From the NCBI GenBank assembly GCA_047967505.1, contig CM106538.1: a stretch of 64,000 nucleotides of DNA; one strand, 5' to 3'. Position numbers and translations under genes: made by a program. The notes beneath the pieces were generated by a model. It saw nothing but the letters and a program-made list of their open reading frames with translations, was not told the DNA's origin and made no database searches. Source of the DNA: Dipteris shenzhenensis (taxonomy: Eukaryota). How positions within the stretch are numbered: position 1 is the first letter of the stretch; every line of letters starts with the position of its first letter. Positions 1,237 through 48,514 of the stretch are shown piece after piece.

Positions 1237-1240
1237 AATC

Positions 1241-20145: not shown

Positions 20146-23100
20146 ATGGCTGCTAGATGTGGGGACAAGGTCATGATGGTGGTGGGGAATGAAGTGGTTG
20201 CAATTGGTGGTGTGTCATAGATGCAGAGGGCTATTGTAGTGGTGTGAAGATTGATGAAGAAAATGTATTGGTGATAGTGGAGAAGTCTATCAATAGTGAT
20301 ATGCTCTTGCCATTTCCCACTATGGATGCATTGCTTATTGGTGAGGCACTTTGGAGCATTGTCAAGTGGCCTAATACCTCTCTAAAACATGTTGGTGATT
20401 CTTTAGATGATCCGATAACTCAAGAAGCCACACCAAGTGAGCCTAAGCAACCTTATGTTGAGGCAATACCAATTTCTTCATTGGAAATTGACAATTGCAT
20501 TCCTGAATCTTGGAAAGAGAAAAAGGTTGTCTTGTGGGATGATAGCAAAACAAAGACCATGGGGGAAGGTGTGATCTTGTATGTTTTTCTGGGTGACTCT
20601 ATAAACTTTGATTTATTGGGTAACAATTGCATTGGTGTGGGTATTGAAAAGAAAGAACAAATGATAAGAAGTGGCTTAGGGTCTTCTATGCAAGATGTTG
20701 GATCTCTCAGCCTAGTTAAGTGGCCCATCAAGCAGATTACCTTAGTTAATGGAAGCCCATTGCAACAATATGTGCCCATGAGCCAGGTTGGTGGCACAGA
20801 TGAGGTGGTCAATGATCTAATGTTGAAAAAGGATGCTCCACCTTGAAAGAAAAGAAGGTACACTTTCATTAGCAGGGTGCCTAAACAAAGGAAGCCTCCA
20901 ACGCTAATGTACAAAATGTCACTAGAGTCGGTGGTGCAGCAAGTTTCATCCATCGATTGTTGTGGTAGTAGGTACTACCTAGCATGCTGAACGAGACGTC
21001 TTAATGTCTGTAAGGAAGAATTTTTGAGGCAGCTCCTTGGAGTCTCGTACAAACTTTTTATACGATATGTTGTTAATGGCTTGGCATCGTGACTATGCTA
21101 GGAGGATATGCTACAACTTCAAGGTAAACAATCGGGATGTGTGTTGTAGAGCATGGTACGAGATGCATGGAATCCCAAGGGCATCATTTTATCGATACAG
21201 GGAGCAATTTGAGAGTGGTGTGCAACGATATGTGCGTGGGAATTTTGGGATTGTGAGGAGGAGCAAGGTGCACACAGGTATGGGGAGGGCTCTCATTCAA
21301 CACTTTATGGATAATAGCACAGACCATATGCCTCACAAGAGTAGAACCATGTAGGATGGTTCTAGAGAGACACAGCAAGTGATACCTGAAGCATGAGGTC
21401 AACACTTCACTTAATCAACGTGGTTATCAGAGCTTATCCACATCCACATTTGGCAAGATTCAAAAATCAAACTTAAAAAATGTAGCCCTTGCTAAGACAA
21501 GTGAATTCTCTAAATGTAGCTTTTGCAGTCAGATCAAGGCTCAATTGGCAGCCACAAAAAGTCAAGATGAGTGCAATTCATTGATGGAGGAGAGAAAGAT
21601 GCATATGATACAACAACAGAGTTGCAAAAACTTATACTATGTATGGCATAGGTACTCCGAGATGGATCCAAAAAAGTATGTATGCATAATCCATGATATG
21701 ATGGACAAAAAAAAGACGACAATTCCAAGCCTTTGCGTGAGGTCCAAGGACACCGATTCTGCATGGCAATGATAGGTTTCACTCATTGGAATGATTACCC
21801 ATGGCCATGGACAAGTTCATTATGGACACTTCACCCTCAATGGTTTCTGGCCATCTGATCTCAACCTAACAATTGGATCGCTCTCAATTTGTTTGCACAA
21901 CCTAGAGAGGATGGATATGCATGACTTCAGAGACCTTGCTATAGATGGGATTCCAAGAAGCCATGCTCACCTTCTGAATTCTCTCACAAATTCCATGACA
22001 ACTTCCATTGCGAGGGATGCAGACAGAGTGCAGACACATGTAGGAATTTGTTGCCATCAGCTACTCGTGAAAATCCACCGTCTCCAAATTGATGTGTTGC
22101 TGTTGAGCTAACAAACCAAAGTTTCCAAAGAGCTTGCTACTCCAGCTAGATAATTGTGGGTCTCAAAAGAAAAATAGATACTTGTTTGCATACCTTTCTC
22201 TTCTTGTAGCAAGGGGAATTTTCAAGACAGTTCAATTGGGATTCTTGATGGTAGGGCACACACATGAGGACATTGATGCAATGTTTAGTAGGTTCTTTGA
22301 GAGTTTGCAAGTAGGACAAACATTCAATTTCCCTCATCTAATGGATACATTCAAAAAATGTACATCAGCTTCTCAAGCACCATTTCTTCTTACACGAGTT
22401 CCTAACTTCAAGGATTATGTGGATGGCTACCTATGTGATGGCCAAGAAATTTGGTTGGTCATGCAAAGCCATTACAATTTTGATTTTTCATGCAAGGTGA
22501 GAGACCTATGATGCAGTACAAGGTGCATCCAACATCACTACACTGGACACCCATTGAAGGGGGAATTGAGCTATGGAAGAAAGATAGTGAGGGTCGACCA
22601 TTGCTGCCTATAGGTTTTGCTCGGATATATTGCCAATGGTTGCATTTGTGAGAGATCACTTGTAAGTAATATCAAGGACAAAGGATTACATTAAGTTTTG
22701 GGAGAGATGTGCAAGTGGAAAGAATGTGTCGTATGAGTCCTACATTAGGCCAATGATAGACTACTGGAAAACCATGATCGGTGAGCTTGAACAGGAAAAC
22801 ATCTCAGAGATAGGCTCGGGGGGGTCACTATGTATAAACCCTCTATATCACATGCGTTCAAGGCCTATATTTAAAATCCCTTATCTGTAAATTTTTTCAT
22901 TAATAAAATGTACCCCTTTTCTATACAAATCTGTAAATTTTTTCCAAAACTATTTTAAATAGTCCCTTATGTATATTTATTTCTGTAAATTTTAGGAATA
23001 AAAAATATCCTTCTTTTGAACTCACGTGATAGGGTTACATATGATGAGTGACCCCCCCGAGGAGATAGGAGTGTATAGGGAATTTTGGCCAAGAACACAA

Positions 23101-24664: not shown

Positions 24665-27161
24665 TCCCTCGAGTGTTTGGAGATCTGGTAGGACAATAGC
24701 AATTATACGAGAAGGTGAGCAATGTAGCCTACCAATGTCCTCAATGCCAGGCCCTTGACTACCAGTGTCCTGACTAATAGGCTGCTCTAAGACAGTACCA
24801 ATGTCCTCAATGTGCCCTTGACTACCAGGGTCCTAACTAATAGGCTGCTCTAAGACTAGAGTCTCAGTAGCAAGGTCCTGGCTAGTATCATCCTGCCTAG
24901 TAGTTTGCTCTTTAGTTCCAAGCACCTGACTACTAGTAGGCTGCTTGAGAGTCTCATGATCAAGTTCTTGGTGAGTAGGGTCCTGGCTACTAGGTTCCTG
25001 ACTAGTAGGCTGCTCTAGAGTCTGTAAGGTCATGGTTGAAGAACCATCTATGCCTCCTGGTAACTCCTCCTGGTCATGCTTTGCCTCGTCCATACCTTCT
25101 TTGGGTAAGGCTTCCTTGCTTGATCCACTTGCATGTCCATCACCCAAGATCAAGGGTGCCTTTCTCACTTTTAATTTCAAGGGAAGTGCTTCCACCTCTT
25201 TAGCCTTACCTTTTCCTACGATGTGCTATACTACTACTTACTTGCTACCACGGGCCTTTTCGTATGATGAGTGGAACCTCCTTGACTCTAGTTGATAATT
25301 GATCACCCTTATTCTTTGTGTGGATTTCCTCTCGGCGTAACTCATCGGATGCAGAGCTTTCATCCTCATCATCGCCTGAGCTAGAATCATCACGCTCAGA
25401 CTCACTACCCTCGTCTTTGACATTTTCCTCATTACCCTCTTCTTTGACATTTTCCTCTTCAAAGAAGGTAGTACAACTGTGATATGTGTCAAAGAACTCA
25501 ATCTGATTGGTGGTATCAATGACATTTATATTTCTACCTTGGCGTAGCAATTTCTCAACAACAAAACCGATTCGATACAATGCTACTTCCCACCCATCAT
25601 TCAGTAAATTCTTTGTCATCTCTAGTATCACATCAAGATCCATCAGCTTTCTATAATCCACCATTACTGCATCAACGTTAATCTTATTGTCCTCAAAATA
25701 ATGAAGCTTGAGAGTCCTTAAAGGAATTTTGATTAGATTGCCACTACCCCTGGATAAGAAGCACATCAAGAAAGGCTGCAAGACTTGAATGGAAGTGCGT
25801 TCCAAGACTGTGATATGATTGTCAACCTTATTACTTGGTACGCCTTGCATATTGCTTATAACACCTTTCAAGCATCTATAGAACCGAGTCGTCTTTGCCA
25901 TGTACTCAAATGTAGGTCTCTTGCCCTTCACAGTTTGTGGCTTTCCATAGCCCACCCATAACTCCCTTGCCTCTATCAGGATCTCAGAAAGAAAAGATCT
26001 TTCTTTCAACCTAAATGGAGTAGACCTCAACCTTTTTGATTCTAGAATGTACTTCGAGTCATCGTTAAATATGCATACATGACAAATGACCCATTGAAAC
26101 TTTTCCATCCACTCAATCTGTGGCAAGTTTCCTTTTCTTCCCTCAACAAGGGTGATCCTGCAAGCTTCACAAAAGTGTTGCCCATCAATGGGCTCAAAGC
26201 TGCATCTTTCCAAGAATCTATTCTTTGCCAGCATGTATCTCTTCTTGATGTTAGTCCCATATCGGCTTTGGTACAAAGCCTCTCCACAAACAAAGTCACT
26301 CCTTCTAAAATTCTCAAAAGCATCAAGAAAGTCCACACGCTTTTGAAATGTGACATCAGGCAATGTAGGATCATCTTCTTGAAGTCTCTTAAACACCATA
26401 GGAGGAAGAGTGATATTAGTGGCAACTAGAGTTCTTGTTTTCCTCGTATCTTCATACAATTTGTGTGCAAATGTCTTATCTAGCTTTATTTGATTTGTGA
26501 ACAACGAAGCTGTATCAATAAGCATTGTGGCCATGCTAAATTGTGGAAATCCCCAAATGTACCCCTCATCCTCTCGAGGATGTAAGTTCGCCACACTTAT
26601 AGAAAAGTCTGCGAGATTTGTATCTTCTTCTTGCAGATCCTCTTGGTCATCACTATCCAATTTTTTGCTTGGTTTTAAATAACCTGCACTTGAACGATTT
26701 GCACATGGAGTAGGAGTTATTTTGGCTCTCTTTCTGGGAATAGCTGTGGAACTTGAATCTGCTCCATGATCACTCCTTCTTGTTCTTGTAGTTGTTGCAG
26801 TAGTCAATGGTGTAGGTACAGTTGGAGATAATGTAGTTACTACCGTAGATATTGTAGTTACTTTTGTTGGAGATACCGTAGTTATCGGCACAGATATTGG
26901 CGGTACAACTTGAGGGATACATGTTATAGATGGCATACTTACTGCTGATGGAGGTACAACACCACCACTTGGAAATGCATCCCACATTTTCTTCAATGCT
27001 TCCAAGGCACTAAGTAATTCTTGGGATCCCTCAATTGAATCTGGTAAGGGCTTCAAAAAGTGCTTGTGTGTGACTCGTAACTTGTAGACCACATCGTCAT
27101 TCTTCCCTTTGCACACAACTTCTATCAAATTGTTTTCTTTAATGTTGATGGTTGAGACCAT
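24665..27161 (-). CDS. Main and 3' part of a large unknown protein with a ParB/Srx-like 'PIDGQH' motif (open 27161-25245; frameshifted repetitive tail to ~24665)
   Basis: 638 open codons: P/T-rich linker, NLS-like PRKRAK, FEPIDGQHFCEAC, acidic tail. A further frame continues with LEQP[TI]S repeats. Confidence 0.7.
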
Positions 27162-30100
27162 TGTAAGAAAATAATACGTCTGTGCTCAACAGATAACAAG
27201 ATCTCGTATGCAAGAGAGAAAATAGATTGTATGAGAGAAGCTTTGATGGCATGCTGGAAACAGTAGAGGACGGAGACTGGATGCTAAGGAATCAAGGTTG
27301 CTGTAGCCAGTGATGAAATGGGATTCATGAGCTCGCTCTTATATAGTCACTAGTTGTAGTCGGTTAGACCCAATTTGGTGACCGACCTAGTCCGCCCAAA
27401 ATGGTCGACTGGGGGTTGGGGCCACGGACCACACGATAGAACCATGGCATAAAATAGAGCCATCCGAGATCATCTCGGACTCCAAACGGGCTCTACAACC
27501 CAAGAGTGGGCTGCCTCAAGAAAAGCTTTGTCTTACCTCAGTGCGATCAGTCATGGGATGCCTTCTTGCACTTGTTGGTAAGCTGAAAGGAAAGCAAAGA
27601 GTGGACACAAACTCAGAATACTTGCATTATGGAATGAAGAAGAGTGAGGTCCTTAAGTAGGCACCTCATACATGCTCACTGACATCATTGATGACTTCAG
27701 AGCTCCACAATCATCTCCTCAATCTGCTCCTAGATTCTCTCAATCATCCTATGTGGCTCTCCACCACCTAATTGTGCTTGTGGGCACCTAACTGTGCCTC
27801 TAGCACTCACACATAGAAACCAAGGTGTGCCTGAGGCATACATCTTGAGATATCCCATCAAACCCCCCTTCAAGGGAATGCCTCAGGCTATGTCAAGGAT
27901 ACATCTAGTCTCATAGTTTCTCATGCCATCTCATGGTGGTTAAGGATAAATCTATGGCTAGGTTCTCATGCTAGCAAGGGTTCCCATGGGTGTAAGGTAA
28001 ACAAAAGGGATACAAAAAGACCTTCCAATGGTTATCTCCCCTACATGTACATGCACAAATGTCTGTAGGAGGTACCATGGAGCAAAACATACACATGGCC
28101 TACATCATAAGGTGACCAGAGGTGTAAACACACAAAACACAATAGTTTATTTCATTCATTTTGGAGGACTATCCAGGCTGAGTACCTTGACATAAAAAGA
28201 GAGATCTGGAGCATACATAGAGATGATTTAAAATGCATAATCTTCAAAGGATGTCTCATCTTGTGGAGGCTCATCAACTGAAAGTAGATTTGCATTTTTT
28301 GTCTTTGAAGTTGCTTCCTTTTTGGCAACCATTATCTTGGCAATCTTCAACAAGGAAGCCATGTTGGCATTTTCTTCCTTTGTAGCATAACAAGACATTG
28401 CTTTATGTTTAGGCTTTTCACATATTTTGCATAAGCAAGCCATGAGAGGGTCTAACACAGGTATTAGGCAGTGTCTTCTCTCTTACAAGGCTTAGAATAA
28501 CAACTGAAATGCTTCAAAATATAAGCATTTAATGTAGCAAAGTCTTGTGACCAAAAATCAAACAATGATGCTTTTTCTTACATGCTTCATAGAGATGGCT
28601 AAAATGAAAGCTTTCCAATCAAAACCAGGTATAGCGGCTCAAAGCAAAGCTGAAGCCACAGTTGTACTCATGTTATTGAAAGTTTCAAAAAACCAGAAGT
28701 GCTAGAGTAGCATTTTATGTAGCATCATCTTCAAAAACTTGTCCAAAACTATCAAAACCAAAAGGCTGAATTTGGAGGGCTTGTAGCTCACTCTTCAAAG
28801 CAACGAAAAGAGGGCTTTCTGAAGCAAAAGAAAGCTCATATACCAAAGAGGATCCAGCACGGAGGTTGGACGAAATGGCGCGTGCTATTGCCCGGGGGAG
28901 TTGCTACAGGCTGAACCTGAGTTTTGACGATTTCTCCTTCGTTACTGAACCAAATGAGCTGAAAAATGACTCAAAATCTTTGTCTTGAGGTCGCCCATCT
29001 ACGTTTGTAGTCCACTTGTAGTACATTCATTTTTAACTTTTAAGAACTCATATTCTAATACTCAAAGACAAGCAATGGCAGAGCAGGCAGGGAGTATAGA
29101 GGAAGGGCGAAAAAATGCGCTGTTTGGAGAATGGTAGCCAATAGAGACTTTTTTTTTTCAATTGCTTGCAGGTGGAAGTTTGCCCATACTAGAGGAGTTT
29201 ACAGCTTAGAGGGTTTGGGCAATGGTCGTTTGTAGGCAGAGAACCAAGCTCTCAAAGATTTTGGGAAGAAGGAGGAAAATGGAGAAGAAGAAGATGAAGA
29301 AGAAGAAGATGATATGGCAGAAGTGGGCTCAAGGGGGATCAAAGGGCTCTGATACCATGTTGGTAAGCTAAAAGGAAAGCAAAGAGTGGACACAAACTCA
29401 GAATACTTGCATTATGGAATGAAGAAGAGTGAGGTCCTTAAGTAGGCACCTCATACATGCTCACTGACATCACTGATGACTTCAGAGCTCCACAATCATC
29501 TCCTCAATCTGCTCCTAGATTCTCTCAATCATCCTATGTGGCTCTCCACCACCTAACTGTGCTTGTGGGCACCTAATTGTGCCTCTAGCACTCACACATA
29601 GAAACCAAGGTGTGCCTGAGGCATACACCTTGAGATATCCCATTAGCACTTGCATGCAAGAGACTTCGTGAAGATGTTCGCAGCATTCTCTGTAGTCAGA
29701 CAATACACCAAGTTGACCTCTCCATCCATGATGAGCTCGCGTGCAAAGTGATATTGAATCTCAATGTGTTTTGTGTGAGCATGGAACACAGGGTTCTTTG
29801 CAATCACCATGCAACTCTGATTGTCACATGATAATTGCGTAGGCTTGTTCTGCACTACACCCATGTCCCCCAAAATCCTCCCCAACCACACTGCCTTGCA
29901 AGAAGCAAAGCATGCTGATTTGTACTCAGCCTTGGTAGAAGAAAGAGCAACTGTGGGTTGCTTCTTGCTGACCCATGACACAACTCCAGATCTAAGTGAG
30001 AAATAGTACCATGTCATTGATCTCCTGCTGTCCACATCTCCTGCCCAATCCGAGTCACAAGATCCGATCAAGATGTTGCCTTTGGTATAGGTGATGCCAT

Positions 30101-33100
30101 AATAAAGTGTGCCTTTGATGTATTTCAGCACCCGCATCCTTGCCCTCCACCAATGGTTTTCTCGAGGCTTATTGGAAAACCTGCATAGTACACCAATCAC
30201 AAAGCTGATGTCCGACCGTGTGTTGCACAAGTAAATCAAACTGCTCACAAGCCTTCTGTACTTTGCTTCGTCCACCAGTGGTGATGAATCCTCATTTGAG
30301 AGCTTCACATCAACCTCCATAGGGGTACCAACTGTCTTGCACTCAGCCATGCCAAATGCCTTCAGTATCTCTCCAGCATACTTCAGCTGTGAAAAGAAGA
30401 TCTGTTTTGGCTCTTGCTAAACTTCAATCTGCAAACAGAAGTGCATCAGTCCAAGGTCTATTATTTCAAACTCTCTTCCTAGCAAATGCTTTGTTTGCGA
30501 GATCTTCTCTTCATGGTTCCCAGTTATGACAAGGTCGTCCACATAAAGGACCACAATCATACACCTGCCTCCTTCTCTGAAGATATACAAATTTGCATCT
30601 AATGGGCTCCTCCTGAACCCGTTTTGCAGAAAGTAGACATCAATCTACTGGTACCATGCTCGTGGGGCCTGTTTCAGCCCGTAAAGTGCCTTCTTCAGTT
30701 TATAGACTTTACCTTCTGAATCGAGGATCACAAATCCTAGTGGTTGTTCCACGTATACCTCCTCCTTGAGATCTCCATTCAGAAAGGCGAATTTACATCC
30801 ATCTGAAACACAGGCCAACTTCCCTAGGTAGCTAAAGCCAAAATACTGCGAATTGTGGTTAGTCGAGCTGTGGGAGCAAAAGTATCATGATAATCAAAAC
30901 CATGTACCTGTGCAAATCCTTTTGCCATGAGCCAAGCCTTGTACTTATCCAATGTACTGTCGGACTTGTACACCCACTTGGTGCCGATTACCTTGTGTTT
31001 TGGTGGACGATCCACAAAGTCCCAAGTGTTGTTCTTCATTATGGAGCCATACTCCATGTGCATAGCCTCCATCCACCTATCATCACCCTGTGCCTCTTCA
31101 AGACACTTGGGTTCATGAGCACGGATCACCTCAGTCATCAAAGCGTAGCTGACCAAGTGTTCCTGTGCCCTTCTTTGCTCCTCTAATCTCTTGGACCGAT
31201 GGTGTTTGGATGGTTCCTCCTCAATGGCTGGGGGTTCTCTATCATCCAAAAGCTGCTTTACCCACTTTGGGAATGGTTGTTGATGTTGTGCTTCTTCAGG
31301 CTCTTCTTCATCTTCTTTATCTGAAATCCTCCCAAGCACCATTGGGGGAGTTCGGTCTGTTGTTGGTGGTGGTGCTGGATGGATATCCTGGTCCTGGTTG
31401 TCTGGGAAGGAAGCATCCTCCTCCAATTGATGCGGCTATTCTGAGAAGACCACATTGCGACTTACTATTACCTTCTTGGTAACAGGGTTATAGAGACGAG
31501 ACGTTGTTTCACCGTGTACCTTTACCAATGACCTTCCCTTGAAGATCCAGGATCTGTGCACCATTCTTATCAAATTGAACTTTGAGGTCTCGATCCATGA
31601 TCGCAAAAATGAACAACAAGTTCCTCTTGATATTTGGCACATAAAGAACATCAGACAACTGTTTTACAACTCCATCTGACTTGAGAGTAATCGTATCTTT
31701 TCCTTTTGCGGGACATTTTGCATCATTGCCGATTGCTACCAGGATGTCATTCCCTATCGGCTCTAGAGAGGTATACCAATCCTTCTGACTCGTCATGTGG
31801 CGCGATGCACCACTGTCAATAATCCAAGGTTCATTTGTAGGTACATGAACTACCTTCGTGCAAATCTTCTCAATTGCGACGAACAGCTCTACTGGTACTA
31901 CCTGCGCGATGTTGTTGGACTCTTTCTTTATTCTGTTCTTCTCATCTATAATCTTCTTCCCGCACTCATTCTGCTTGTGCCTTGCCTTGTTGCAATAGAA
32001 GCACTTGATCTTCTTCTTTCTCTTTTTATCATCAGAAGAAGATGGGTTACTAGAGTCCTTACCCTTACCTTTCTTTGATCCAATGTAGAAAGCCGAATCT
32101 TCTCTAGTCCTCATCTTTTGACACATCTCCTCCTCAAGAAGCATTGCGCTGAAATCCTCAAAGTTGAGGGGCGGATTTATGTTCTGTGTATTTAGTGCCA
32201 TAACAAGACCGTCGTACTTTGGTGGGAGAATCTGTATGCACCTTCATGCTAGATTCTCGCTGGTGATGGTGATGCCAATCACAGTCATCTAATCGCACAG
32301 ATTCTTCACCCTGGTGATGAACTTCTCTACCGCTTCAGACTCAGACAATTTCTCATTTGCGAGCTGAGTCTCCAGATTCTGAATTCGCGTTTGATTCGTG
32401 GTCTCATACTGATTTTTCAAGGCTGTCCATGCCTCCTCTGCTATGGTGACATGTTGAATTAATGCCATGACAAATCACTTACACTGCAGACAATAGAACA
32501 CAGCGCATCTGCATTTCTTCTTGTCCACACGAGAATCTCATCTGTAGTTGGTACTATCGTGTTGTCCTGCATTGGCTAGATCCGGTGGCCTCACGTCCAC
32601 CCCAATAGCAGTGTCCTAAAGCTCGTATGCGCTTAGGACGGTCTTCATCTTGAACTTCCAGAGTGGATAGTTAGAGCCATCCAACTTTTCTCTTTCATCG
32701 AACAGTGGGATTCGCAGTCTTGCGGGCTGGCCCATCTCTCACAATCTGCTCGCAAACAGAAACACACTACCAAATCTACTTGCTAGAGTCCAGGCTCTGA
32801 TACCATGTAAGAAAATAATACGATGTTTGTGCTCAACAGATAACAGGATCTCGTACGTAAGAGAGAAAACAGATAGTATGGAGAATCAAAATTTTGATTA
32901 CTGTAGAACTGATACAATAGATGGCACTACCTCCCAACTGTGTGCTTCTGTGAGAGAAGCTTCGATGGCGTGCTGGAAATAGTAGAGGACGGAGGCTGAA
33001 TGCTAAGGAATCAGGGTTGCTGTAGCCAGTGATGAAATGGGCTTCATGGGCTCACTCTTATATAGCCACTAGTCGTAGTCGATTAGACCCAATTTGGTGA

Positions 33101-33470
33101 CTGACCTAGTCCACCCAAAACGATCTCGTAGGCCACCGACCACACGATAGAATCGTGGCATAAAATAGATCCGGTAGCTTGGACTCCAAACGGGCCCCGC
33201 AACCCGAGAGTGGGCTGCCCCAGGAAAAGCTCTGTCTACCCTCAGTGCGATCAGTCTCATGGGATGCCTTCTCGCACTTGCATGTAGCCTAGTTGGCAGT
33301 GTGCCAACTCTGTCCAACCATCAGGCCACACATGGCCCCCATCTGGTATCCAAACCAGGTCCTACCAGATAACCGAGCTACTCAAATGCCTTCTCCTCAT
33401 ATGGGGGGCTTAAAGTAGAGTTAATTGGTTCCCGCATAGTTACACGAGAGTGGAGCATTGATATCTAACA
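27162..33470 (-). mobile_element. Ty1/Copia element C (integrase core deleted)
   Basis: TSD ACCAT (27157-27161, 33471-33475). 5' LTR 32806-33470, PBS TGGTATCAGAGC (tRNA-iMet, 32794-32805), gag ATG 32735, WIIDSGASRHM, RT and RH (CDSDWAGD). The 3' LTR (27162-27572) is interrupted and partly deleted. Confidence 0.95.
27573..29645 (-). mobile_element. Non-autonomous gag-only LTR element 1 (TR-GAG/TRIM-like), nested in the 3' LTR of Copia C
   Basis: 288-bp LTRs (27573-27860, 29358-29645), TSD GCACT, iMet PBS at 29346-29357, PPT beside the left LTR. Gag remnant CKICEKPKHKAMSC...SFEDYAF. No pol. Confidence 0.9.
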
Positions 33471-33625
33471 ACCATGCCACCATTTCTTACTGCCTCTAGA
33501 GAATATTTCATGCTTGACACATTCTCGGCAGTGATTACCAAAAAATACTTTGATTTGCACTCCATAAAATACCAAGCATGTTCAAGATATTTGAAAGACA
33601 CCTTGGAACCAAAACTCAAAGCCAT
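33471..33625 (-). CDS. 5' coding part of the same ParB/Srx-like gene, separated by the Copia C insertion
   Basis: MALSFGSKVSFKYLEHAW...RNGGMV joins MVSTINIK... in frame across the ACCAT TSD. A splice acceptor TTTGATTGCTTTGCAG lies just before the ATG. Confidence 0.75.
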
Positions 33626-33659
33626 AGTTTTCTGCAAAGCAATCAAAAACAAAAAATGA

Positions 33660-34066
33660 GAATTACAATGATTTTAAAACTCAAAATATTAAAAGAATTG
33701 CTAATTAAATATTTAAATATTAAAAAGTAAAAATTAATTAAAATTTCAAAAGTTAAAATATATTTTAAAAAATATATTTTTATAATTCTACATACTATTT
33801 TTTAATCTAATATTTTTTTACATAAATAATTTAGTTCAAAATATTTTATAAACATAGATAGAAGAATTTAATTTAATTTTTCTAAAATTTTATTTTATTT
33901 ATTTATCTATATATTTAAATTTTAATGTTACTTTTCTAAAATTTTTCTAATTCTAAATTTTTTATTTCTTTAAAATTTAATTTAAATTATTAATTAATTT
34001 AATTTAATTTCTTATTTTTTTTAAAAATTAAATTTAATTTTTTTGTCTCTTTAAAAAAAAAAAAAA
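33660..34066. other. Extremely AT-rich tract, probable 5' intron of the minus-strand gene
   Basis: Nearly pure A/T sequence that ends at a canonical acceptor on the minus strand near 33632. Confidence 0.5.
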
Positions 34067-34077
34067 GAGCTCGAAAG

Positions 34078-34390
34078 GGCCCCCACTTCCTTAAGGGAGG
34101 GTTAATCCCCTCCCTAAGCCCCCAAAGGGGGGGCCTATTGCGTGCGCAACAGGCCCCCCCTTTGGGGGCTTAGGGGAGGGGCCTCACGGGCCAACCTGTT
34201 GTGCATGCAATAGGCCCCCCCTTTGGGGGCTTAGGGGAGGGGCTTGTTGTGTGCACAATAGACCCCTCCTTTGGGGGCTTAGGGGAGGGGACTAACCCCC
34301 CCTGAACCTATTGTGCGTGCAACAGGCTAGCCCGTGGGCCAGCCTAGTGCGAGCGCAAGAGCTTCAGGGGGGGTTAATCCCCCTCCTCCT
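34078..34390. promoter_or_regulatory. GC-rich island with repeated palindromes and GGGGGCTTAGGGGAGGGG units
   Basis: Near-perfect hairpin at 34107-34181, three direct units, and four 16-bp quasi-palindromes. Lies between two divergent ORFs. Confidence 0.5.
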
Positions 34391-35145
34391 CTCCGCCTCC
34401 CCGCCTCCTGTCCTTCACCTCCTACCTCCCACCTCTCCTACGCCTCCCTCCTCTCCCCGCCTCCCCGCCTCCCCCTCTACCTCTCTTTGCCTCCCTACTC
34501 CTCGCCTCCCCGCTCCTCGCCCCCCCAAAAAAAAGATGGAGCGCCTCTCTGCTCCCTGCCTCCCCGCCTCCTCACTCCCCCCAAAAAAAAAAAGACATAC
34601 CGAAGGGGAAGGGGAGGGACGGAGAGGATTCATCATCGAAGGGGGGAAGCGGGAGAAGAGGGGAGGGGGAAGTGGGTGGAGAGGGGAAGGGAGGGGAGGG
34701 AGGAAGGGAGGAGAGGGGAAGGGAGGGGAGGGGGGAAGCGGGAGGAGAGGGGAAGGGAGGGGGGAGGAGAGGGGCAGGGAGGGCAGGGAGGAAGGGAGGA
34801 GAGGGGAGGTGAGGGGAAGGGCTCCCATCCTCCCACCCCACCCCTCCCACTCCCACTGCCATCCTCCCACCCTCACCCCACCCCCACCTCCCCCATTCCT
34901 AGTCCCTCTCCCACTCCCACTCCCATTCTCCCACCCCCACCCCCACCTCCCCCATTCCCACTCCCTCTCCCACTCCCACTCCCATTCTCCCACCCCCACT
35001 CCCATCCCCACCTCCCACAATCCCACTCCCTCTCCAACTCCCACACCCACCTCCCCTCTCCTACTCCCACTCCCACTTCCACACTCCCACTCTCCCTTTC
35101 TCCCACTACCACCCTCCCAACTCCCACTCCCATTCCCACATTCCT
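34391..35145. repeat. Polypyrimidine, polypurine and (CCCACT)n low-complexity tracts
   Basis: C/T-rich 34391-34580, G/A-rich 34600-34820, CCCACT/CCCATT repeats 34825-35145. Confidence 0.9.
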
Positions 35146-35221
35146 ACTATTAATTCCACTCCTACTTATGAATCCTACTTAAAACTATTACTTAAATAAA
35201 TGATATTACTAAAAACACTCA

Positions 35222-36229
35222 TAGGATTTAAGGTTTAGGGTATAGGGTTTGGGGGTTAGGGTTTAGGGTTTGTGAGTTAGGGTTTAGGGTTTGGTGGTTT
35301 AGATTTAGGGTTTGGGGGGTAGGGTTTAGGGTTTAGGGTTTGGGGGTTTGGGTTTAGGGTTCGAGGTTTGGGGGTTAGGGTTTAGGGTTTTGTGGTTTGG
35401 GTTTAGGGTTTGGGGGTAGGGTTTAGGATTTAGGGTTTGGGGGTTAGGGTTTAGGGTTTAGGGTTAGGGGGTTAGGGTTCAGGTTTTGGGTTTAGGGTTT
35501 GGGAGTTAGGGTTTAGGGTTTAGAGATTAGGGATTAGTTTTTATTTGTTAGGGTTGAGGGTTTAGAGAGTCAAGATTATCATTTACAGTTTAGGGATTAG
35601 GGGTTAGGGTTTAGGGTTTAGGGATCAAGGATAAGGGATTAGGGATTAGGGTTTGAAAATTAGGGTTTATAGGTCCTATAGGGTTTACGGTGTAGGATTT
35701 AGGGTTTAGGGGTTAGAGGTCTAGGATTAGGAATTAGGGGTTAGGGTTTAGGTTTAGTATTTCGAGGTTAGGGTTGAGGGTTTAGGATTTAGGGTTTAGG
35801 GTTTAGAGGTCTAGGATTAGGATTGAGGGTTTGGGAATTAGGGGTTAGGGTTTAGGTTTAGGGTTTTGAGATTAGGGATTAGGGGTTAGGGTTTACGGAT
35901 TAGGATTTAGGGATTTAGGATTTAGGTTTAGGTATTAGGGTTTAGGGTCTAGGAATTAGGGTTTTGGGATTAAGATTTTGGGATTAGGGATTAGGGGTTA
36001 GGGTTTACGGATTAGGATTTAGGTTTAGGGATTAGGGTTTAGGATTTAGGTTTTAGGGTTTAAGGGTTAGGGTTTAGGAATTAAGATATAGAATTTAGGG
36101 TTTAGAAATTAGGGGTTAGGGTTTAAGATTTAGGGTTTAGGGTTTAAGAATTAGGGTTTATGGTTTCAAGGGTTTGAATTAGGATTTGGGGATTAGGGGT
36201 TAGGATTTAGGGTTTAGGGTTTAGGGTTT
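35222..36229 (+). repeat. Interstitial telomere-like array, degenerate (TTTAGGG)n, ~1 kb
   Basis: TTTAGGG units mixed with TTAGGG, TTGGGGG and GATTAGG variants, G-rich on the + strand. Confidence 0.95.
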
Positions 36230-36350
36230 GATTAATTTTTTAAACAAGATCTAGATTTTTAAATAATTAATAAAGTATATTATTGAGAAGAGACTAATGT
36301 TCTTTATAATGGTTGTTACAGCTTGTTTGCAAAGGAAACTCACAAAGGAG

Positions 36351-39300
36351 ATGGCTACAAAATTTATTCTGGGGATGGAGGTGATTCTATGTTGCAAAAG
36401 AGAAGTAGTTGCATTTGCTACAGTCCATGAAAGTGATCCAAATTCTATTTGTCACTTTAGAAGACTTGGCGAAGATAAGGTGGCGGTTATCATATCAAGG
36501 ATTCTTAGTGCACATGTTGAGCTAAAGCATAAGTGTGGGGATATGGAAATCCTTGGAGATGTTATGCCCTATAATACTTCCAACAAAGCATTTATTGCAT
36601 GGGATAGAGATGAGACTTATCTAACACATGTCATCAGGAATACAAAGTGCATATCTTTAGATTTTAGCGTGGGAGATATTTTACAAATGTTATCATTTAC
36701 AAATAAGAATGTAGCAGAAGGTCAAGTCTTGGGATTTGAACAAGTGGAACACAGGACATTTGCACAGATGAGAATTCAAAAAGTTACTAATGATGGTATG
36801 GATGATAACTCAATCTCATTGGATGGTCCCTACTATGAGGTAGGTAAGGATTTGACATGGAGCATGCAATTTTTAAAGATTGGAAAGACTCGGCATGTGG
36901 TTTTTAATGATAAACATAATGTATACTACAACATCAAAGAATTGAAAGAATATGCCAATGTACCAAGCTCTATTCCTTTAGAGATGGATGATTCCAATGC
37001 ACTCAACTATAGCATTGACTTATTATCAGAAGTCGATGAGTTCATTGGTAGCGAGAAAGAAAAAGATTTCACAAGTGATGCCTTATTCGGGGTGGATGAG
37101 TTCATGCACATTGAGAACTTGGGCAAAGATGTCAAAAGTGATATCTTTTCAAGCATGGATGGCTTCATGGATACTGATAAAGTTCTTGGAGTCAAACCAA
37201 GTAATTATGGAATTATGGAAATCATGCATGATAGTATAATGAGTGATGTTCTTTCTGGAGTAGAGGAGTTTCAAGACTATGGAGTTGTGAAATCCATAGA
37301 AAGTGCATCAATGAGTGATGCTCTCTCAGGAATAGATGAGTTTGAAGACCATTCTGGACACTCTATCACCACTGACTATGGAGTTATGAAATCCATAAAA
37401 AGTGCATTAATGAGTGATGTTCTCTCAGGAATAGATGAGTTTGAACATCATTCTGGACACTCTAATGCCATTGTGACAAGTGGTTCTACGATTGTATCAA
37501 AAGTAGGGATGAGATCAACAAAGCCTAACTATTCGGTATTTGACTTTGATTGTGAAATAGTTAATGTTACAAATGGTTTGACAAATGTATCAAAAGCAAG
37601 GATGACATCAACAAAGGACTATTCATTATTTGACTATCATAGTGATAAGATCAAGGATGCAACATCTCATGAAAACAACGTGACAAATAAATCTTACAAG
37701 GAGAACTACACAAGTCCAAATAAGAATGTACAGAAGGTCCCAAAACGGACATACAAATGCATGAAACGGCAAATCCAAAAAAGCAACCAAAGAGAATGAG
37801 TAATGAATGAAGATATTATTCTAAAAGCAATGCGATCTACTGTATGATGTAAGCGTAGATGTATGCGATCCATTAACTTACATGACATCAAGGGTTGTAG
37901 AGATCATATCTGGCAAAGGAAAGGGAGCAAGATAAATGAATACCTACTCAAGAGACTATCTTGCTTTCTTGTAAATGATAAGAGAAGGCGAAGTTCAGGA
38001 CAACAGATAAGGCCTCTTATAAATGGAAAAAGTGTTTGCAATAATGCATATCACATTATTATAGGATTATCACATGGCACATATTGGAATTTGGCTAATA
38101 AAGCAAAGTATGGAGTTAAATTTAACATTCATGAAAACATAGGAAGGCCCAAAACAAGAGCCTCAATGGTTGCAGCAATAGCAATTTTGAAAGGTTACAT
38201 CTATGAAAATGCTTTACCGCAACCCCATCTATCAGAAATGCATCTTGCGATAGGTTTGACTAAAAAAGAAGTATTTAACTCTATTGGAGAAACACAGCGG
38301 CAAAGAGGGCATGCACCAGCATCTTTCCGTACTTTGTATACTCTTTGGAAAAAAAGCTTTGGACATGTTAAAATCCCAAAGAGGCAAAAAATGTCAAAGT
38401 GCAACGACTGTGATGATCTAAAGTGAGCACTTGAGAGTGCAACATCTCCAGAACAAAAAGAAGCTTACAAAAAAAAGAGAGAATTTCATCATGGACTTGT
38501 TCGACATTCTAGAATAAAATATGCATTTTGAAAGGAGCAAGCTATTTCTCACCCAAATGAGTACATGTGCATTATTGTAGATGGTATGGATCAATATACA
38601 ACAACATTACCTCGATTCATTAACACTCCACCTAAGCTACAAGGAAAATACTTTTTAAAGACACATATATGTGGAGTGTTAGTGCACGGATTCAAGTTTT
38701 TTGTAGACATATGGATTGATTCCTTGCATCTACATGATAGCAATCAAGTTGTAACATCCGTTGCAGACAATTGCGAATGAGAGAATAAGAATGTACTCTT
38801 CTTTGCATTCTACTCAATGCTAATCACTCATAGAATCTTCAATGAGATTGAAGTTGGGTTTTTGTTGGTTGGGCACACACATGTGTATATTGATCAGGTA
38901 TTTAGCACGGTTTTAAGAGAACTAAAACACAAGGACATGGAGACGATGGATGACTTGATAAGAAAATGTGGGAGGCAAGTTGGTGGCCATAAGGAAGGAA
39001 CAATATGATCAATGGTTGAGAGGATGTATGATTGGAAGAGCTTTATTCTACCTTTCATACAAAAAGGTGGTGATGCCCTGATAGGTCATAGTGCTCTACA
39101 CTATTTTCACTTTTTCTTAAAGGATGAAAAACCAGTGATGCAATGGCAACACTATTCTCTTGATACAAAATGGGAACCTGAAGAACCTTACTCTCTCTTA
39201 ACTTCGATCTCGAGCAAAGAAATGCATCCAACATGGGCTCCTATAAAAGAATTCAGCGAGAAATCCAAAGGTGAAATAGAAGGCTTGAAAGCTTTTATTA

Positions 39301-39960
39301 CATACAAAGAGGAAATGCTCCAGAGATTTCCTGATTGGAAGCCCTCTTGGAAGGAACACACTACTGTTGTAATTAGCAAGACTACCAATTGATAAAGGAC
39401 CTTGTAAAAATGCAAGAAGATGATATTAAGGTAGAACGGTCTTTATTTTGGCCAAATGTTGGTAATGACTTGCATCTAGCATGTGGTCTCTTTGAAAATG
39501 AGTTTGACTCGCTACTCCCACGTCCATATTATGACCCAAGAAGAGAGTTTATGCCACAAATAGACATAGACGTCCATTGTTTTGTTGTAGTTCTTTGTTG
39601 GAGTTCGACCATCGGATGATGAACATGAGAACGTGAAGTTTTGGGTTGCGAAAGTAGTTGACGTGAGCATGGATGACCGGGGGAGAGCTACAACATTTAC
39701 AGCGGTATGGTATGAGCCAAGGGGTAGGAAGGAGAACCAAGATAACAATACATTGTATAGTAGTTGTTTGAAAAAGGAATGGGTCCCAAACCATGATGCA
39801 ATTTCAAGACTTTCCACAGAGACAGTCATAGTATCCTGGAAATCAAGGTGAAAGAAAACAAAGAAGCACATGGGGTATGATGTAGAAGACAAAATAAAAA
39901 ATTACCGCAACCAATTATTTTGCACATTAAAGAGTTCATAAAGATGCTCACCTAGGAGGA
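36351..39960 (+). pseudogene. Decayed DNA transposase 2, Sola-like / DUF7869-type, homologous to transposase 1
   Basis: Two N-terminal Transposase_23-like domains (VVAFATVHESDPNSICHFRRLG...FIAWD), SKCNDC, YMCIIVDGMDQ..T.LP, ADNC, FLLVGHTH.YIDQVFS, C-terminal FWVAKVV...AVWYEP. Branch point CTAAT and acceptor TTACAG (36321) precede the ATG. Confidence 0.82.
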
Positions 39961-40528
39961 AGTAGAAGGAGATAGCGCAAATGAAGAATGCCCATGATAA
40001 CACCATTCAAATATCGAGAAAGAGTGAAGGTGGTGGTGGTAGTCAGATGAGAGTGCATGAAGATGGCACCCAAGTGACAAGTGACAATAGAAAGGACATT
40101 TTGAACAAGCAAATGTTTGGATCACTCATTTTTGTGATGATAGAAAAGGACATTCAAACAAGCAAATGTTTGGATCACCCATTTGTACTAAACTCACTGT
40201 AAAGGAAAAAGTAAATTATTGAAAAGGCCATAGGAGATCCTTTGTACAAAGACTCATCAAGAGCAATATTTGTTGTAAAACTTATGATATGATAATGTAA
40301 AATTGCAAGCATAGCTATTGCTATTTTTTGGAGTATAAAAGAGGCTTCCATCATGTCTTATGTCTATATAAACCTTTTAATTTCTTGAATATTCAAGAGT
40401 GTTATAGTTTTCTGCATTGAAAGTAAAAAGAGTCTTGCAGGTCTCTTATGTATACATTTTTAAAATGTTGTGAATCCTCAATAGCATGGTTTTTCATGGA
40501 TTTAAACTAATAACTCGGATTTTTTAAT

Positions 40529-40656: not shown

Positions 40657-43600
40657 TTAGTACAACATTGTAGAGATATTTTGAAATGTATTATGTGGAA
40701 ATGATAGTGCCAGAAAGTAAACTTTTGATTCTCGAATGACATTTTCATAAAGTGAACTTTTCATTTGGGAAGGATTTTAAGGAATACTTGTAATTAGTTT
40801 GTATTAATACATCAAATGTCAAATATTCTTTTTTGGTTGCAAGTAATACTTGAGTTAAGAGCTTTGTAATATCTGATATGCTTTATTACAACGAATAATT
40901 CTATTGGAGGAAACTAGATTTGTAAATTGCCATGTTTGGTGAAATGAATAACTTTCCATAGTCGCCGATTGCTCTCTCCTAGGGTTTCAAGACCCATGGT
41001 CCTTTCTTTAATTACAAGTTGAGACTGGTGGCGTGCAACTATTTCATCCACAGTCGTGTCTACACTTGCGGCTATCTGACCACCCAAGACAGCAATCACC
41101 GTTGCTACTCCCAGACCCTTGCACTTTCCAATTTGTCTTTGAGGGTTGCCTAGGAAATGTTTGCGCATATGAGTTCCTAAACCCTTGTACTCGTTGTGGT
41201 AGATGTTACATCTCCACTTTGAGGCAGTTATGAGTGTAACATAGTCTCAAGCTTTTGCAAGGTTTTGGCCTCATTTCTCTGGAGCCATGCTCACATACTC
41301 TATATGCACATACTAATAAATCAATAATGTGCAAAATTGTCAATTGCCGTTGCATGGACAAAAATGTAAATATGTATTTTAGGTTGCATGCTGATGGGTA
41401 GGTGCATAGCTATGTACATAGCTAGTTGATGGAGGAAATGAGCTATGGATACTCTCATAAAGACTCTACACAGATGTACAGATGGTAGATACTTCTACAA
41501 AGACTTCTAGAAGATGATGAAAAGTAGTGTGGTTGTAGCAGACACTCCAGAGCAATTGATGTGGGATGACATGCCTTTCATTGTTGTCCTGTGTCCTGTG
41601 TTTATAATGTCATGAGTGTTTTTCCTTTTGTATTGAGTCATGTGAACTTCCCATGAGTCAAGATGGTTTGGTGTAAAGAGATTAGTAGAGGCATGCAAGT
41701 GGTTGAATTCCTATCTAGAACCATGTGTGCATTAAGTCTAAAGTTTGGAAATAAGCATTTAAAGCTTGGTGTATGAATTGGGAGAAAATCTTTGGGAGTG
41801 GTAAAAATCAAGCATGAGGTGGCTACTAGAAGTGACGTGGCTTGTATTAAGAAAAGCATGCATGCATGCTACATAAGGAAAAAAAAGAGACTTTTGGTGG
41901 ATGAGCTGGCAAGTATGCGTGATCATAGCAACCAAGAAAAAAGGAGCTCCTCATTGTGGAGCGGAGGCGCATACGAGATCTAGAGGAGGTGGGAGGAGGG
42001 AGAGATGAGGTGGGAGGCTTGGAAGGAGGAGAGGAGAGGTGACGCTTCTACAAGAGCAGGGGACCTTGGATGAAGAGGAGCTGGGGAAGTGGAACCGTGA
42101 GTGGGAGAAGGAGTTTATGAGCACACAGAGGATCATCACAAGAAGAAGGAGCTACTGGGGAACTTCTAGAGGGGGATCACGCTGCCCAACCGGGGATCTC
42201 AGAGGGCAAAGAGGAGCTCTAGAAGAGAGCACAGGTCATTGCTGAGTGGCTAGAAGGAGCTCAGAAGCGGGGGCTAGGATTGCACAGAGAAGGGAAAGCG
42301 ACTGGGGACTATGGGTTTGGGCAACTCTATGGGGGTTCAGAGGTTGCAAATATATGAAGGAAGGGAGCGCGCATTGTGACTGAGTAGGTAAGGAGGAGCT
42401 TAGGAGTGCAAGGGGCAGATATGCACGTCGTCACTAGAGGCCTGAAGGGAGGTCAAGGGTGACATAGATAGAGGACACCATAGACAAAGTGGAACGCTTG
42501 GAAGGTGGAGAGGAGAACCGTGAGCTAGGGAGGTCAGTCGTTGCTCTATGGAAAGCTTGGTTGGAAAGGCTTCTGTGCAAGAAGGAGTAGATAGAAAGAT
42601 AGGACAAATAGAAGATATGGGTTGATGATTTGGGGGTACGCATTCAATTTAGAGCTAACTGTAGGAAGATTATGGCTAAGCAAATGCCTATTGATTTTGA
42701 GAGACCTTAGCTCTGGAGGTTCCCAGAGATGACGACCTGTTGTAGTTGAATGAGCAGGGTTTTTTGCTGAAGGGTGGCTGTTGTATGTACTGTTATGGAT
42801 AAATTTGACCAAACTAAAAGGCATAAATATGTGTGTGTGCTTGTATGTGTGGCAATAGTATAATAAAATATGGTGTGCATAAGGCACCCAGGGTTGAGGT
42901 GGCAGGGCATGACCATGTGCCACCCTTCCATGTAAGAAGACCCATAAGGTGTATTATACATAATCCATGGTAGTAATAATATAAAATGATAAGGTGGCAT
43001 GGGTCCTCCATGCACTACCCCTCCACCTAGGTGGTCCCATGCCTGCATTTAGTGAGATGTGGCCCAAGGACCATGGGAGAAGTAATATAAAATAGGTGGA
43101 GATAGATATTATATTGGATTATTTTCTCCATGTAGGATAGGCCCATGTGGGGGGGGGGCATAGAAAGTCTAAGAATGCAAGTTAAATAATGGGAAAGTAG
43201 GATGAGGTGGCAAGATTCCTTGTGCCAACCCTCCACTTGTCCTCCTAGATGTTTGAACGTATTATAAAATTGGAAAGAGACCAAGGGAGTATCTTAGACT
43301 TGGGATGTGGGGGTTGATGTATGTGGAAAAATGAGGCAAAGGGTTGTCGCACACAATTGAGAGTGCATAACCACCTAGCCCACATGGGACACTCTTCCAC
43401 ACACACCATGCATGTGGGAGGATGCATTTATTGGGAGAGACCCCCTCTCTTGGCTATAAAAGGAGGGGGCTATTCCTTGATGGAACACACTCATTCCTGT
43501 AAAGCCACCTAGCTAGTACTTTGATTTCTTCCCCCCATCTTTCCTTTCAAATAAAGCATGACCCTCCTCCCTTGATGTCTCCATCTCTACATTCCTCATC

Positions 43601-43801
43601 CCATCATGTACATGCTCCTCTTCCCCCTCTCCCTTCCCCCTTCTGGCATAGTCCCTCTCTTCATTGCCACCCCTCTTAATCCTTTTTCCCCACCTATGTT
43701 AATGCTTCTTCCCTCACGTTCCCTTTTCCTCTATGGCCCTCGAGCGTCGCCATGCCTTGCGTCTAGTATCATGCCTCGAATTCTTTCCTAGTTAATAGAA
43801 T

Positions 43802-43819
43802 TGGTGTGGCTGTTGGGAT
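43802..43819 (+). promoter_or_regulatory. Primer-binding site complementary to tRNA-His
   Basis: TGGTGTGGCTGTTGGGAT matches the complement of the plant tRNA-His(GUG) 3' end as I recall it (TGGTGTGGCTGCTGGGAT), with one G:U-compatible change. It directly follows the LTR end. Confidence 0.7.
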
Positions 43820-45219
43820 CAAAATCTCCATGGCTAGTGGTGTAAGATTCATTACTCCTATGGTTGGGTGTAGTTCTGTAGCACCTTCCATGTGCGGTTC
43901 TTTGCTTCTGTGCCTCCAATCTACGTATCTTCTGTTCGTAGTTCTTCGTCTCTGTGGCTTCAAAACTTCTTCGTTTTTACACCTTTAGCTTGCGGTTCTT
44001 GTGCATCTTCTAGGTTCCTGCATAGCGCAATGCATCTTCTAGTCGATCACACTTGTAAAACCACTCATGCGTATCTACAACACCTACACGTCCCTTGGTT
44101 GTAGCTAGTGCATCTGCGCATTGCAGATAGATCACGAATCATGACTGTTTTCTGAGTTTCTGCATCTTCTAGTGCATCTACGCATCGGGACTGCTTTCCT
44201 GGATTCCTGCATCTTTTCGCGCACCTGCGCATCGCGGACAGACTTTTCGGGCTCCTGCAAAAGATCTCGCGCCCCTCTTCCTCTTCTCTTCTCCTCTCCT
44301 CTCCTCTCTTTCTATTAAGGAGTGGGAATTGAACCCAAGACCTCCCCATTTACAAAATGAAGACTTATCAATGGGCCAACAAATAGGAAGTGATGAAAGT
44401 GTAAAGATATTGCTTATATGGTGAAATCTCATGAACTATAACTCTCTAACCGGAGGGAGTTTCCTCTTGTTGTAAAAAGCAAAAGTACTTCATTTCATGT
44501 GCTCTATTCATATTTGATACTAGATCATAGATTTTGAACTTTTTCAAGTTCACTCCTTGGATGCACGCCACACGAGGAGGGTGGATATTTATGTCACTTC
44601 AGTTCAAGGATTTGGTACTTGGTCCTCTGCTCATTACGGCTACCAATTGGTGAGATATCTTTATTGATCTTCATGTCGATCTTCAACAACTGATTGTACA
44701 ATGCATTGTTCAAGGAGATGACGGGTGGGATGATACACCGTGGGTGATTCAAGGTGAAGAATTAGTGATACACTGGGAGGATTTTGATTTCAATTCTACT
44801 CATTGTGTGGTGATTGAGCTACTTGCTGCATTGGAGGTAATTAAAAGGGTGACATTCTTCGAAGGTTGGGATGCTCCCTAAGCTTGGGGGAAGATTTGGC
44901 GCATCTGCTTATTAATTCCTATGGATAAGCTCGTCTTGAATGATTTCTTCTCGATCTCATTACAAAGATTTCTAGGGCTCGGCTATGGTTGGTAATGTTT
45001 CGACCAAGGAATCCCTTTGTACCTAATCAACCTTTTGTGCCTCATTTTGAGCTTCAAGTTGTAATTCTTTTTGGTCTAAAGATAACTATTAACAAAGGAT
45101 TGCAAGTTTATTTGGTGCTAAATGTCTTGCTCAAGTATTGAATTCTCCCCACCCTCTCCTTTTGCCTATCTTGGACTACTGAGAAACCTAGAATATCCGG
45201 ATTTTAGTCTTGGTGTGAT

Positions 45220-45730
45220 GACATCTTGGCTTCTCCAATTTGACGACGCATATAAACCTTCGACCAAGGCTATTGGTGTGGGTGTGAAGCTCACTTCACC
45301 AAGGGGTGAGGTGTATTGTTATAGCAAGTCTACACCAACAAGTACTTGCAACCAAGCTGAGTACTTGACACTCATTTTTGGGCTACAAAAGGTGCAATAA
45401 CATCGCATCAAGCAACTTACTTGAGGTGCAAGGAGATTCTCGACTCATGTGTAAACAAGTTAGTGGAAGGTGGAAGGTGCGGAGCGAAGGCTTGGTTCCA
45501 TGACATCAACAAGCATTGGAACTTTGCCAACAATTTGAAGAGGTAAAAATTCAGCATATCCCTTGAGCTCAAAATATAGTTGCTGATTTCTTAGCACGTG
45601 AAGCTTGTACTTCAATCACGCATGAAGCGAGTGGAAGCACCGCCCAACCAAAGCCGCAAGCCACGAAGGAGGGTGATCATTTGTAAGGAATGCAAAGGTT
45701 GTGGTCATCATGAAACTAAGTGTTGGGCAT
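45220..45730 (+). pseudogene. Archaeal-type RNase H (RVT_3-like) plus CCHC knuckle in the 5' leader of Gypsy E
   Basis: WLLQFDDA...GVGV...TCNQAEY..LIFGL...VQGDSRLMCKQVSG.WKV...IQHIP..QN.VADFLAREA, followed by CKECKGCGHHETKC. Confidence 0.85.
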
Positions 45731-45881
45731 ATTTGATATGGGTTTACCGACTTCGAAAGATCATCAGAAAGGTCCTCAAGGACATTGCTCAAAAGAAGGA
45801 TGCCAGACCACAGTCCCCTTGAAGAAATAGCATGGTGATTACAAGAACCGGAAGAAGTTGAAGGTGATATGCAAGCTCTCC

Positions 45882-48199: not shown

Positions 48200-48514
48200 T
48201 CTACAACTGTTGACATTTGTCATGGCATTCTTGTTTGCCTTGATGAACAAGCTCATGTAGTGCCGTGTCTCTAACCCTTGCTTGTAAAGATGGATGCAAT
48301 ATCATGAGGGTTTGTCCTTTTAAGATTATCTACGAGCTATTCTATGCTGAAGATTCTTCGCGTGTAGTATTTCACAATACACCAGTCACACCCTACCCTG
48401 CCTATATGTGCTTTGTGGATGTATCTTCACCTGATATTCAGTTCAAGCTACCTCTTTCCATTGTTTGCCCATAAATAAGCCTCATTTTGTCTCTCTCTTT
48501 TCCATTTTCCAAGC

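Follow-up and report, generated by a model that had tools for sequence, protein, structure and literature searches.

An open reading frame of an unnamed family and a dead DUF7869 transposase in Dipteris shenzhenensis: a tentative two-gene transposon relic

Results

Arrangement of the interval

A window of 64,000 nucleotides from Dipteris shenzhenensis (GenBank assembly GCA_047967505.1, contig CM106538.1), the whole stretch of DNA analysed here, carries at positions 24665-40300 a long minus-strand open reading frame (ORF), a transposase gene on the plus strand and, between them, a block of repeats with unusual base composition. An initial annotation of the same sequence had interpreted this interval as an undescribed two-gene DNA transposon, in which a ParB/Srx-like gene and a Sola-like transposase diverge from a core of palindromes and telomere-like repeats and into which a retrotransposon, Copia C, was inserted. 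All parts on which that proposal was built (the minus-strand ORF, an AT-rich tract, a GC island, palindromes, TTTAGGG-like repeats and the transposase) were found at the locus, and the divergent orientation of the two genes was confirmed. Without Copia C and one copy of its target duplication the interval measures about 9.48 kb, in agreement with the predicted cassette of about 9 kb. The interval is a mosaic within a transposon nest; it is not demonstrable as one unit and it is not self-mobile. Protein domains were assessed in 70 of the 191 ORFs that the window contains at a length of 75 codons or more.

An open minus-strand frame split by Copia C

As it stands, the minus-strand ORF extends from 25245 to 27185 and comprises 646 codons from stop to stop. 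Its main part (25245-27161) starts with an ATG at 27159-27161, ends with a stop codon at 25245-25247 and carries at 26175-26198 the motif of an unnamed EP[IV]DGQH family. Copia C (27162-33316, minus strand) lies directly upstream. This element was recognised as a Ty1/Copia retrotransposon by its pair of long terminal repeats (LTRs), a 5-bp target site duplication (TSD; ACCAT, once at 27157-27161 and again at 33317-33321), a primer site of the tRNA-Met type at the right LTR and gag/pol frames, which run on the minus strand and are broken. Of 398 aligned LTR bases 353 are identical (88.7%), with 5 gap events and a Kimura two-parameter distance (K2P) of 0.125. Copia C is an old insertion that split the minus-strand ORF after its first 20 codons. 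When the element was excised in silico, the frame ran on for 20 codons to 33381, which amounts to 658 codons without a stop, and translation of this 5' continuation (33322-33381, minus strand) revealed further in-frame ATG codons. The minus-strand ORF had been proposed to begin just after a splice acceptor. Since its apparent start at 27185 falls within the LTR, the supposed acceptor is LTR sequence, and the frame itself crosses the excised element. The 3' LTR of Copia C is adjacent to the ORF, has the same orientation and points into it; as the ACCAT duplication contains an ATG, this codon stands directly behind the LTR. Within Copia C, a segment of 286 bases that adjoins the left LTR on its inner side (27573-27858) recurs 1.8 kb away at 29358-29643 with 98% identity, which is an internal rearrangement of the retrotransposon.

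The minus-strand ORF stays fully open although the LTRs of the element that splits it are 11% diverged. When substitutions were simulated at the rate seen in the LTRs, an open frame was kept in 3.3% of the trials (P(no stop) 0.033). A corresponding argument for selection based on indels was dropped, because the dead transposase described below is free of frameshifts over more than 1,040 codons and makes the LTR indel rate an unfair yardstick. The ratio of observed to expected CpG dinucleotides (CpG o/e) of the ORF is 0.42, near that of Copia C (0.40) and unlike that of an expansin-like exon in the same window (0.87). The closest relative, P0002 (80% identity), terminates only a few residues from where the minus-strand ORF ends, hence the stop codon looks native. 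Decay of the C-terminus by a stop and a frameshift, as suggested by another relative, P0010, was rejected, as the closer P0002 ends there too. Just 3' of the stop codon, at 24730-25021, lie repeats of 36-63 bases that read in another frame as a Q/P/S/T-rich tail; P0010 reads on into a tail that resembles this one.

The family of the minus-strand ORF

A HMMER pass over 1.84 billion representative sequences yielded 16 matches to the minus-strand ORF at E<=1e-3, and a profile search added 14 further members, about 30 in all. A protein of Diphasiastrum complanatum was among the matches, and a set of members on metagenome contigs shares a near-identical stretch around WEPVDGQHI. The ORF is an intact member of a real eukaryotic protein family that has no name. 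The family looks transposon-associated, with a multicopy, transposon-borne pattern, since many of its members are truncated or frameshifted, among them several from ENA that are cut short or have frameshifted tails; the CpG depletion of the ORF agrees with this. Pfam detected no family in the ORF, nor in the 17 aligned members, and assigned the ORF no mobility domain. Fused or co-named proteins were absent from the 17 profile matches of the family.

The ParB/Srx fold assigned in the initial annotation was derived from one EPIDGQH motif, a short strand-DGQH-helix at model residues 123-146. Such a motif is shared with ParB/Srx proteins of the DndB and DGQHR type. The DGQHR signature of these proteins includes an arginine, which the minus-strand ORF lacks, having F or I at this position, and neither hidden Markov model (HMM), PDB sequence nor fold comparisons produced a match for the ORF. 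Specifically, ParB, DndB and DGQHR gave no match at E<=10 in Pfam (0 of 17 members) or in NCBIfam, PADLOC and PHROGs (0 of 26 members). Sequence and profile searches of the PDB with the family returned no ParB and nothing relevant. Two AlphaFold models are weak, with mean predicted local distance difference test (pLDDT) values of 50 and 68, and no ParB was among the fold matches of these two weak models. Neither the four HMM libraries nor PDB sequence searches supported the assignment, and nor did the two structure models, whose low confidence does not allow the fold to be excluded. Two other leads were discarded as weak and unconfirmed by Pfam, namely fungal DUF3723 (scored 0.92 with 142 shared features, recognition below the bar), which had no match for the family in Pfam, NCBIfam, PADLOC or PHROGs, and QRICH1 (scored 0.75).

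A decayed DUF7869 transposase on the plus strand

The plus-strand gene had been named a transposase of the DUF7869 type, and with stops read as X it scored 109 bits against Pfam DUF7869 (PF25273; cut-off 26, E 2.9e-31). It occupies a single frame (36267-39395), probably begins with the ATG at 36351 and is annotated here as a pseudogene at 36351-39392. The triad motifs DGMDQ, DNC and GHTH..ID are present as reported. The gene is not intact: the frame is broken by six stops in 1043 codons (37797, 37845, 38424, 38529, 38778 and 39006), which the initial annotation had not noted. All six stops are TGA, a codon that makes up 41% of the stops in the other five frames (P about 0.005). In an alignment with 31% identity, one of these TGA codons sits at an arginine of the intact relatives, which would fit a CGA-to-TGA decay at methylated CpG. 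Further along this frame, beyond a stretch rich in stops that may be an intron, the C-terminal domain of the transposase is encoded at 39591-39848 (profile, E 8e-6; tblastn with P0019, E 0.008). A splice acceptor had been placed ahead of this ORF as well; a CAG that resembles an acceptor is located within the frame at 36319-36321, and no evidence of its use was found.

The Pfam DUF7869 proteins P0018 and P0019 share with the gene the catalytic domain, the motif order DGMDQ / DNC..ENKN / GHTH..ID and the C-terminal domain. Intact relatives of 1055-1066 amino acids are 30-32% identical to it over 96% of the catalytic part (31% over 569 columns for P0018). In contrast to P0018 and P0019, the copy studied here carries the six stops, lacks about 21 residues near 38763, just ahead of the DNC motif, and has 490 N-terminal residues that do not align. 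The GHTHEDID of intact relatives is replaced in it by GHTHVYID. The aspartates of DGMDQ, DNC and GHTH..ID are in invariant columns of the family alignment (A5), whereas this copy has lost the strand preceding DNC and has an interrupted frame. The copy is a dead cut-and-paste transposase of the DUF7869 type that cannot be active. The label Sola-like, in the sense of similarity to the reference transposases of Sola1, Sola2 and Sola3, is a putative one for this transposase. A search for solved structures related to the transposase by sequence found none, and no paper in the collection searched named DUF7869 or PF25273. In the non-conserved N-terminal half of the frame, a tandem duplication of 99 bases (37275-37472, 90-93% identity) repeats an acidic segment of 33 residues.

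The block between the two genes

Between the ORF and the transposase lie the segments listed in the initial annotation. The first is the AT-rich tract at 33700-34060, with a GC content of 7.8% and short AT-rich tandem repeats. The GC content then rises to 0.57-0.67 across 34000-34999. The palindrome array at 34107-34382 consists of four 18-bp sites (34135, 34196, 34244 and 34308) and a degenerate fifth, set inside larger inverted repeats, and lies about 0.75-1 kb upstream of the start of the minus-strand ORF. The four sites have no counterparts elsewhere in the window. In shuffled sequences 0.28 occurrences of the 18-bp pattern were expected, a statistic that is descriptive only, since the search pattern was derived from the four sites themselves. 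The four palindromes are candidate protein-binding sites. Downstream, a GC-rich low-complexity block (34400-35150) is first C/T-rich, then G/A-rich and ends in a CCCACT-like run; the long ORFs that can be read in it are artefacts of composition. The last segment is a degenerate interstitial telomere-like array (TTTAGGG)n at 35222-36229, about 1 kb in length, with its G strand on the plus strand. It has a period of 7 and comprises 144 copies with 70% matches, and all 30 near-exact telomere-like dimers of the window fall inside it.

Discussion

Published precedents for a two-gene layout

The combination of a transposase with a divergent accessory gene had been presented as undescribed. A comparable arrangement is already in print: the Sola-1 family Sola1-1_Ec32 of Ectocarpus is 21.5 kb long and encodes on the opposite strand a protein of 1104 amino acids with ParB-like and DNA methyltransferase domains, and similar accessory proteins are cited there for transposons of green and red algae (PMC12477816). 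The same text describes giant elements in which pseudogenised transposases are common, mobilisation occurs in trans and nested insertions become fixed (PMC12477816). In Plavaka (EnSpm) elements of red algae, InterPro recognises no domain in the protein PAG3, HHpred links its N-terminus only weakly to DNA-binding domains of the ParB type, and arrays of tandem inverted repeats adjoin the PAG3 genes (bioRxiv 10.1101/2025.02.11.637652). With the Sola-1 and Plavaka layouts published, the two-gene idea as such is not new.

The locus in D. shenzhenensis shares with Sola1-1_Ec32 a cut-and-paste transposase and a large accessory-type gene on opposite strands, and with the giant families of that source the frequent pseudogenisation of transposase copies and the nested insertions. 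From the algal element it differs in two respects. The algal protein has ParB-like and methyltransferase domains, neither of which was found on the minus-strand ORF in any HMM library, and the host here is plant-like, with TTTAGGG repeats and Copia elements. The likeness is one of layout, and membership of the transposase in Sola-1 would be conjectural. The likeness to Plavaka PAG3 consists in the missing InterPro domain and the faint ParB-like N-terminus of PAG3 and in tandem inverted repeats beside the gene in both cases; the transposase belongs to another superfamily, and the putative 2-oxoglutarate-dependent (2OG) oxygenase domain of PAG3 was not seen here. Two traits of the algal accessory-gene layout are found at this locus, a gene on the strand opposite to the transposase and tandem inverted repeats beside that gene. 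An intact putative accessory gene next to a dead transposase and an old nested cargo resembles what both reports describe (PMC12477816; bioRxiv 10.1101/2025.02.11.637652).

A relic of a two-gene element

We consider it possible, at somewhat less than an even chance, that the interval is the dead relic of a two-gene DUF7869 element whose accessory gene has survived. The minus-strand gene would then be, or have been, the accessory gene of such an element, and the transposase at 36351-39392 would be the likelier partner. The opposite-strand layout would match that of the Sola-1 family of Ectocarpus. The four tandem palindromes upstream of the gene would serve as binding sites of the accessory protein. 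An old Copia insertion split this gene 20 codons in and left an ATG right behind a 3' LTR that runs in the same direction. The relic interpretation is favoured by the strong DUF7869 match of the transposase and its alignment with intact relatives, by the family of the ORF with its decayed members, by the transposon-like CpG depletion, by the position of the ORF amid two DUF7869 relics, by the palindromes upstream of it and by the algal precedents. The parts, their order, the condition of either gene and the reality of the family are established; kinship of the genes, binding of the palindromes by the protein and any role of the telomere-like array would be conjectural.

Several observations weigh against the relic interpretation. 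A second, more decayed DUF7869 relic (21028-22648, plus strand), recognised by profile matches in several frames and by Pfam DUF7869 on 22107-22508 (114.5 bits, E 6e-33), is located tail-to-tail with the minus-strand ORF. Its identity to the first transposase is no more than 25-44% (tblastn), so the ORF has two candidate partners, and the second relic is an equally placed rival and would be the alternative partner. Elements of the Sola superfamily have terminal inverted repeats (TIRs) and a 4-bp target duplication (PMC10741241). The initial annotation had left the termini to be defined from the flanks; seed extension and short-word BLAST of the flanks gave no TIR or TSD for any flank combination within the window, only chance matches of 12-18 bp. 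A large LTR retrotransposon that begins at 41355 may have displaced or removed a right terminus, or the termini may be situated beyond the interval. No second copy of the minus-strand ORF was detected within the window, a scan of viral contigs with P0018 retrieved no locus, and metagenome scans for the ORF family and the transposase family returned 123 and 253 pattern matches, respectively, without a relative by tblastn. The two genes have also decayed unequally, with six stops in 1043 codons of the transposase and none in 658 codons of the ORF (Poisson estimate about 0.025); the latter still has six CGA codons. Finally, the ParB identity that would make the precedent apt is unsupported in the minus-strand ORF, and Pfam showed no methyltransferase or oxygenase domain on it or on the 17 aligned members.

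The chief competing explanation, in our estimate rather unlikely, is that the two genes are chance neighbours. The ORF would stem from another, unseen transposon or be a free-standing repeat gene, and the remainder would be debris pushed together by LTR insertions. This agrees with the density of transposons in the window, where Copia C is accompanied by two or more other Copia-type elements, by a 17-kb LTR element that has itself received insertions and by the two DUF7869 relics. Lack of identifiable termini, the unequal decay and the lack of fused or co-named proteins among the 17 profile matches point in the same direction. Chance accounts less readily for the position of the minus-strand ORF, which is flanked on either side by a relic of the same rare DUF7869 type; the scanned ORFs contained no other remains of DNA transposases. 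Pfam gave the flanked ORF no domain for mobility, and a two-gene Sola-1 layout is on record (PMC12477816).

The open frame invites a different explanation, according to which the minus-strand ORF was domesticated from a transposon and is kept open by selection, perhaps with transcription from the 3' LTR of Copia C. We regard this as improbable. A frame without interruption despite an old Copia (LTR K2P 0.125), the small share of simulated copies that stayed open (3.3%), a stop codon that looks native by comparison with P0002 (80% identity, same end) and an adjacent 3' LTR in the orientation of the ORF speak for it. The CpG depletion of the ORF is nevertheless transposon-like and it has numerous, divergent relatives, most of them fragmentary, whereas the transposase, dead yet free of frameshifts, renders ages based on LTR indels unsafe. 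The openness of the ORF beside the old Copia may be due to selection, to continued movement of the composite or to chance.

Similarly doubtful is the full proposal of the initial annotation, which overlaps with the relic interpretation and adds a core that would act as a functional bidirectional promoter for a ParB/Srx-fold protein and the transposase: the divergent orientation with starts about 3 kb apart and the restriction of palindromes and array to this part of the window speak for it, but the ParB/Srx fold is unsupported in every test run, the splice-acceptor start of the minus-strand ORF fails and that of the plus-strand ORF is unsupported, and the array is degenerate (70% matches) and tied to neither gene.

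If the two genes are linked, as the relic interpretation has it, the recently reported class of transposons in which a DNA-binding accessory gene adjoins its own repeat array, known so far from brown, red and green algae, would gain a representative among land plants, and a protein family outside all domain libraries would gain a name. The intact ORF beside an old nested Copia would also provide a handle on how accessory genes survive when the transposase dies. A more far-reaching conjecture, and one to which we give very little credence, is that a giant DUF7869 transposon of land plants keeps an accessory gene of this unnamed family by lineage selection while its transposases die and a nested Copia rides along; its protein would bind the four palindromes in a ParB/parS-like manner, and the telomere-like array would be part of the element. 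If the genes are unlinked, the interval consists of ordinary transposon debris and one orphan repeat gene.

Other features of the window

The right boundary of the region is formed by the large LTR retrotransposon at 41355-58743 (about 17 kb), whose LTRs (41355-42790 and 57290-58743) are 89.4% identical. Its interior contains reverse transcriptase, RNase H and integrase domains and nested insertions. The two additional Copia-type elements are located at about 10.5-14 kb and 16-19.3 kb. The only ordinary-looking piece of a host gene seen in the window is the expansin-like, exon-like ORF at 4172-4558 on the minus strand, which has a DPBB_1 domain (E 8.5e-18) and a CpG o/e of 0.87. At the left end of the window (1-2225), two stretches of 300 bases are repeated with 100% identity at a spacing of 1291-1292 bases; they stem from a tandem duplication of very recent date or from an error of assembly.

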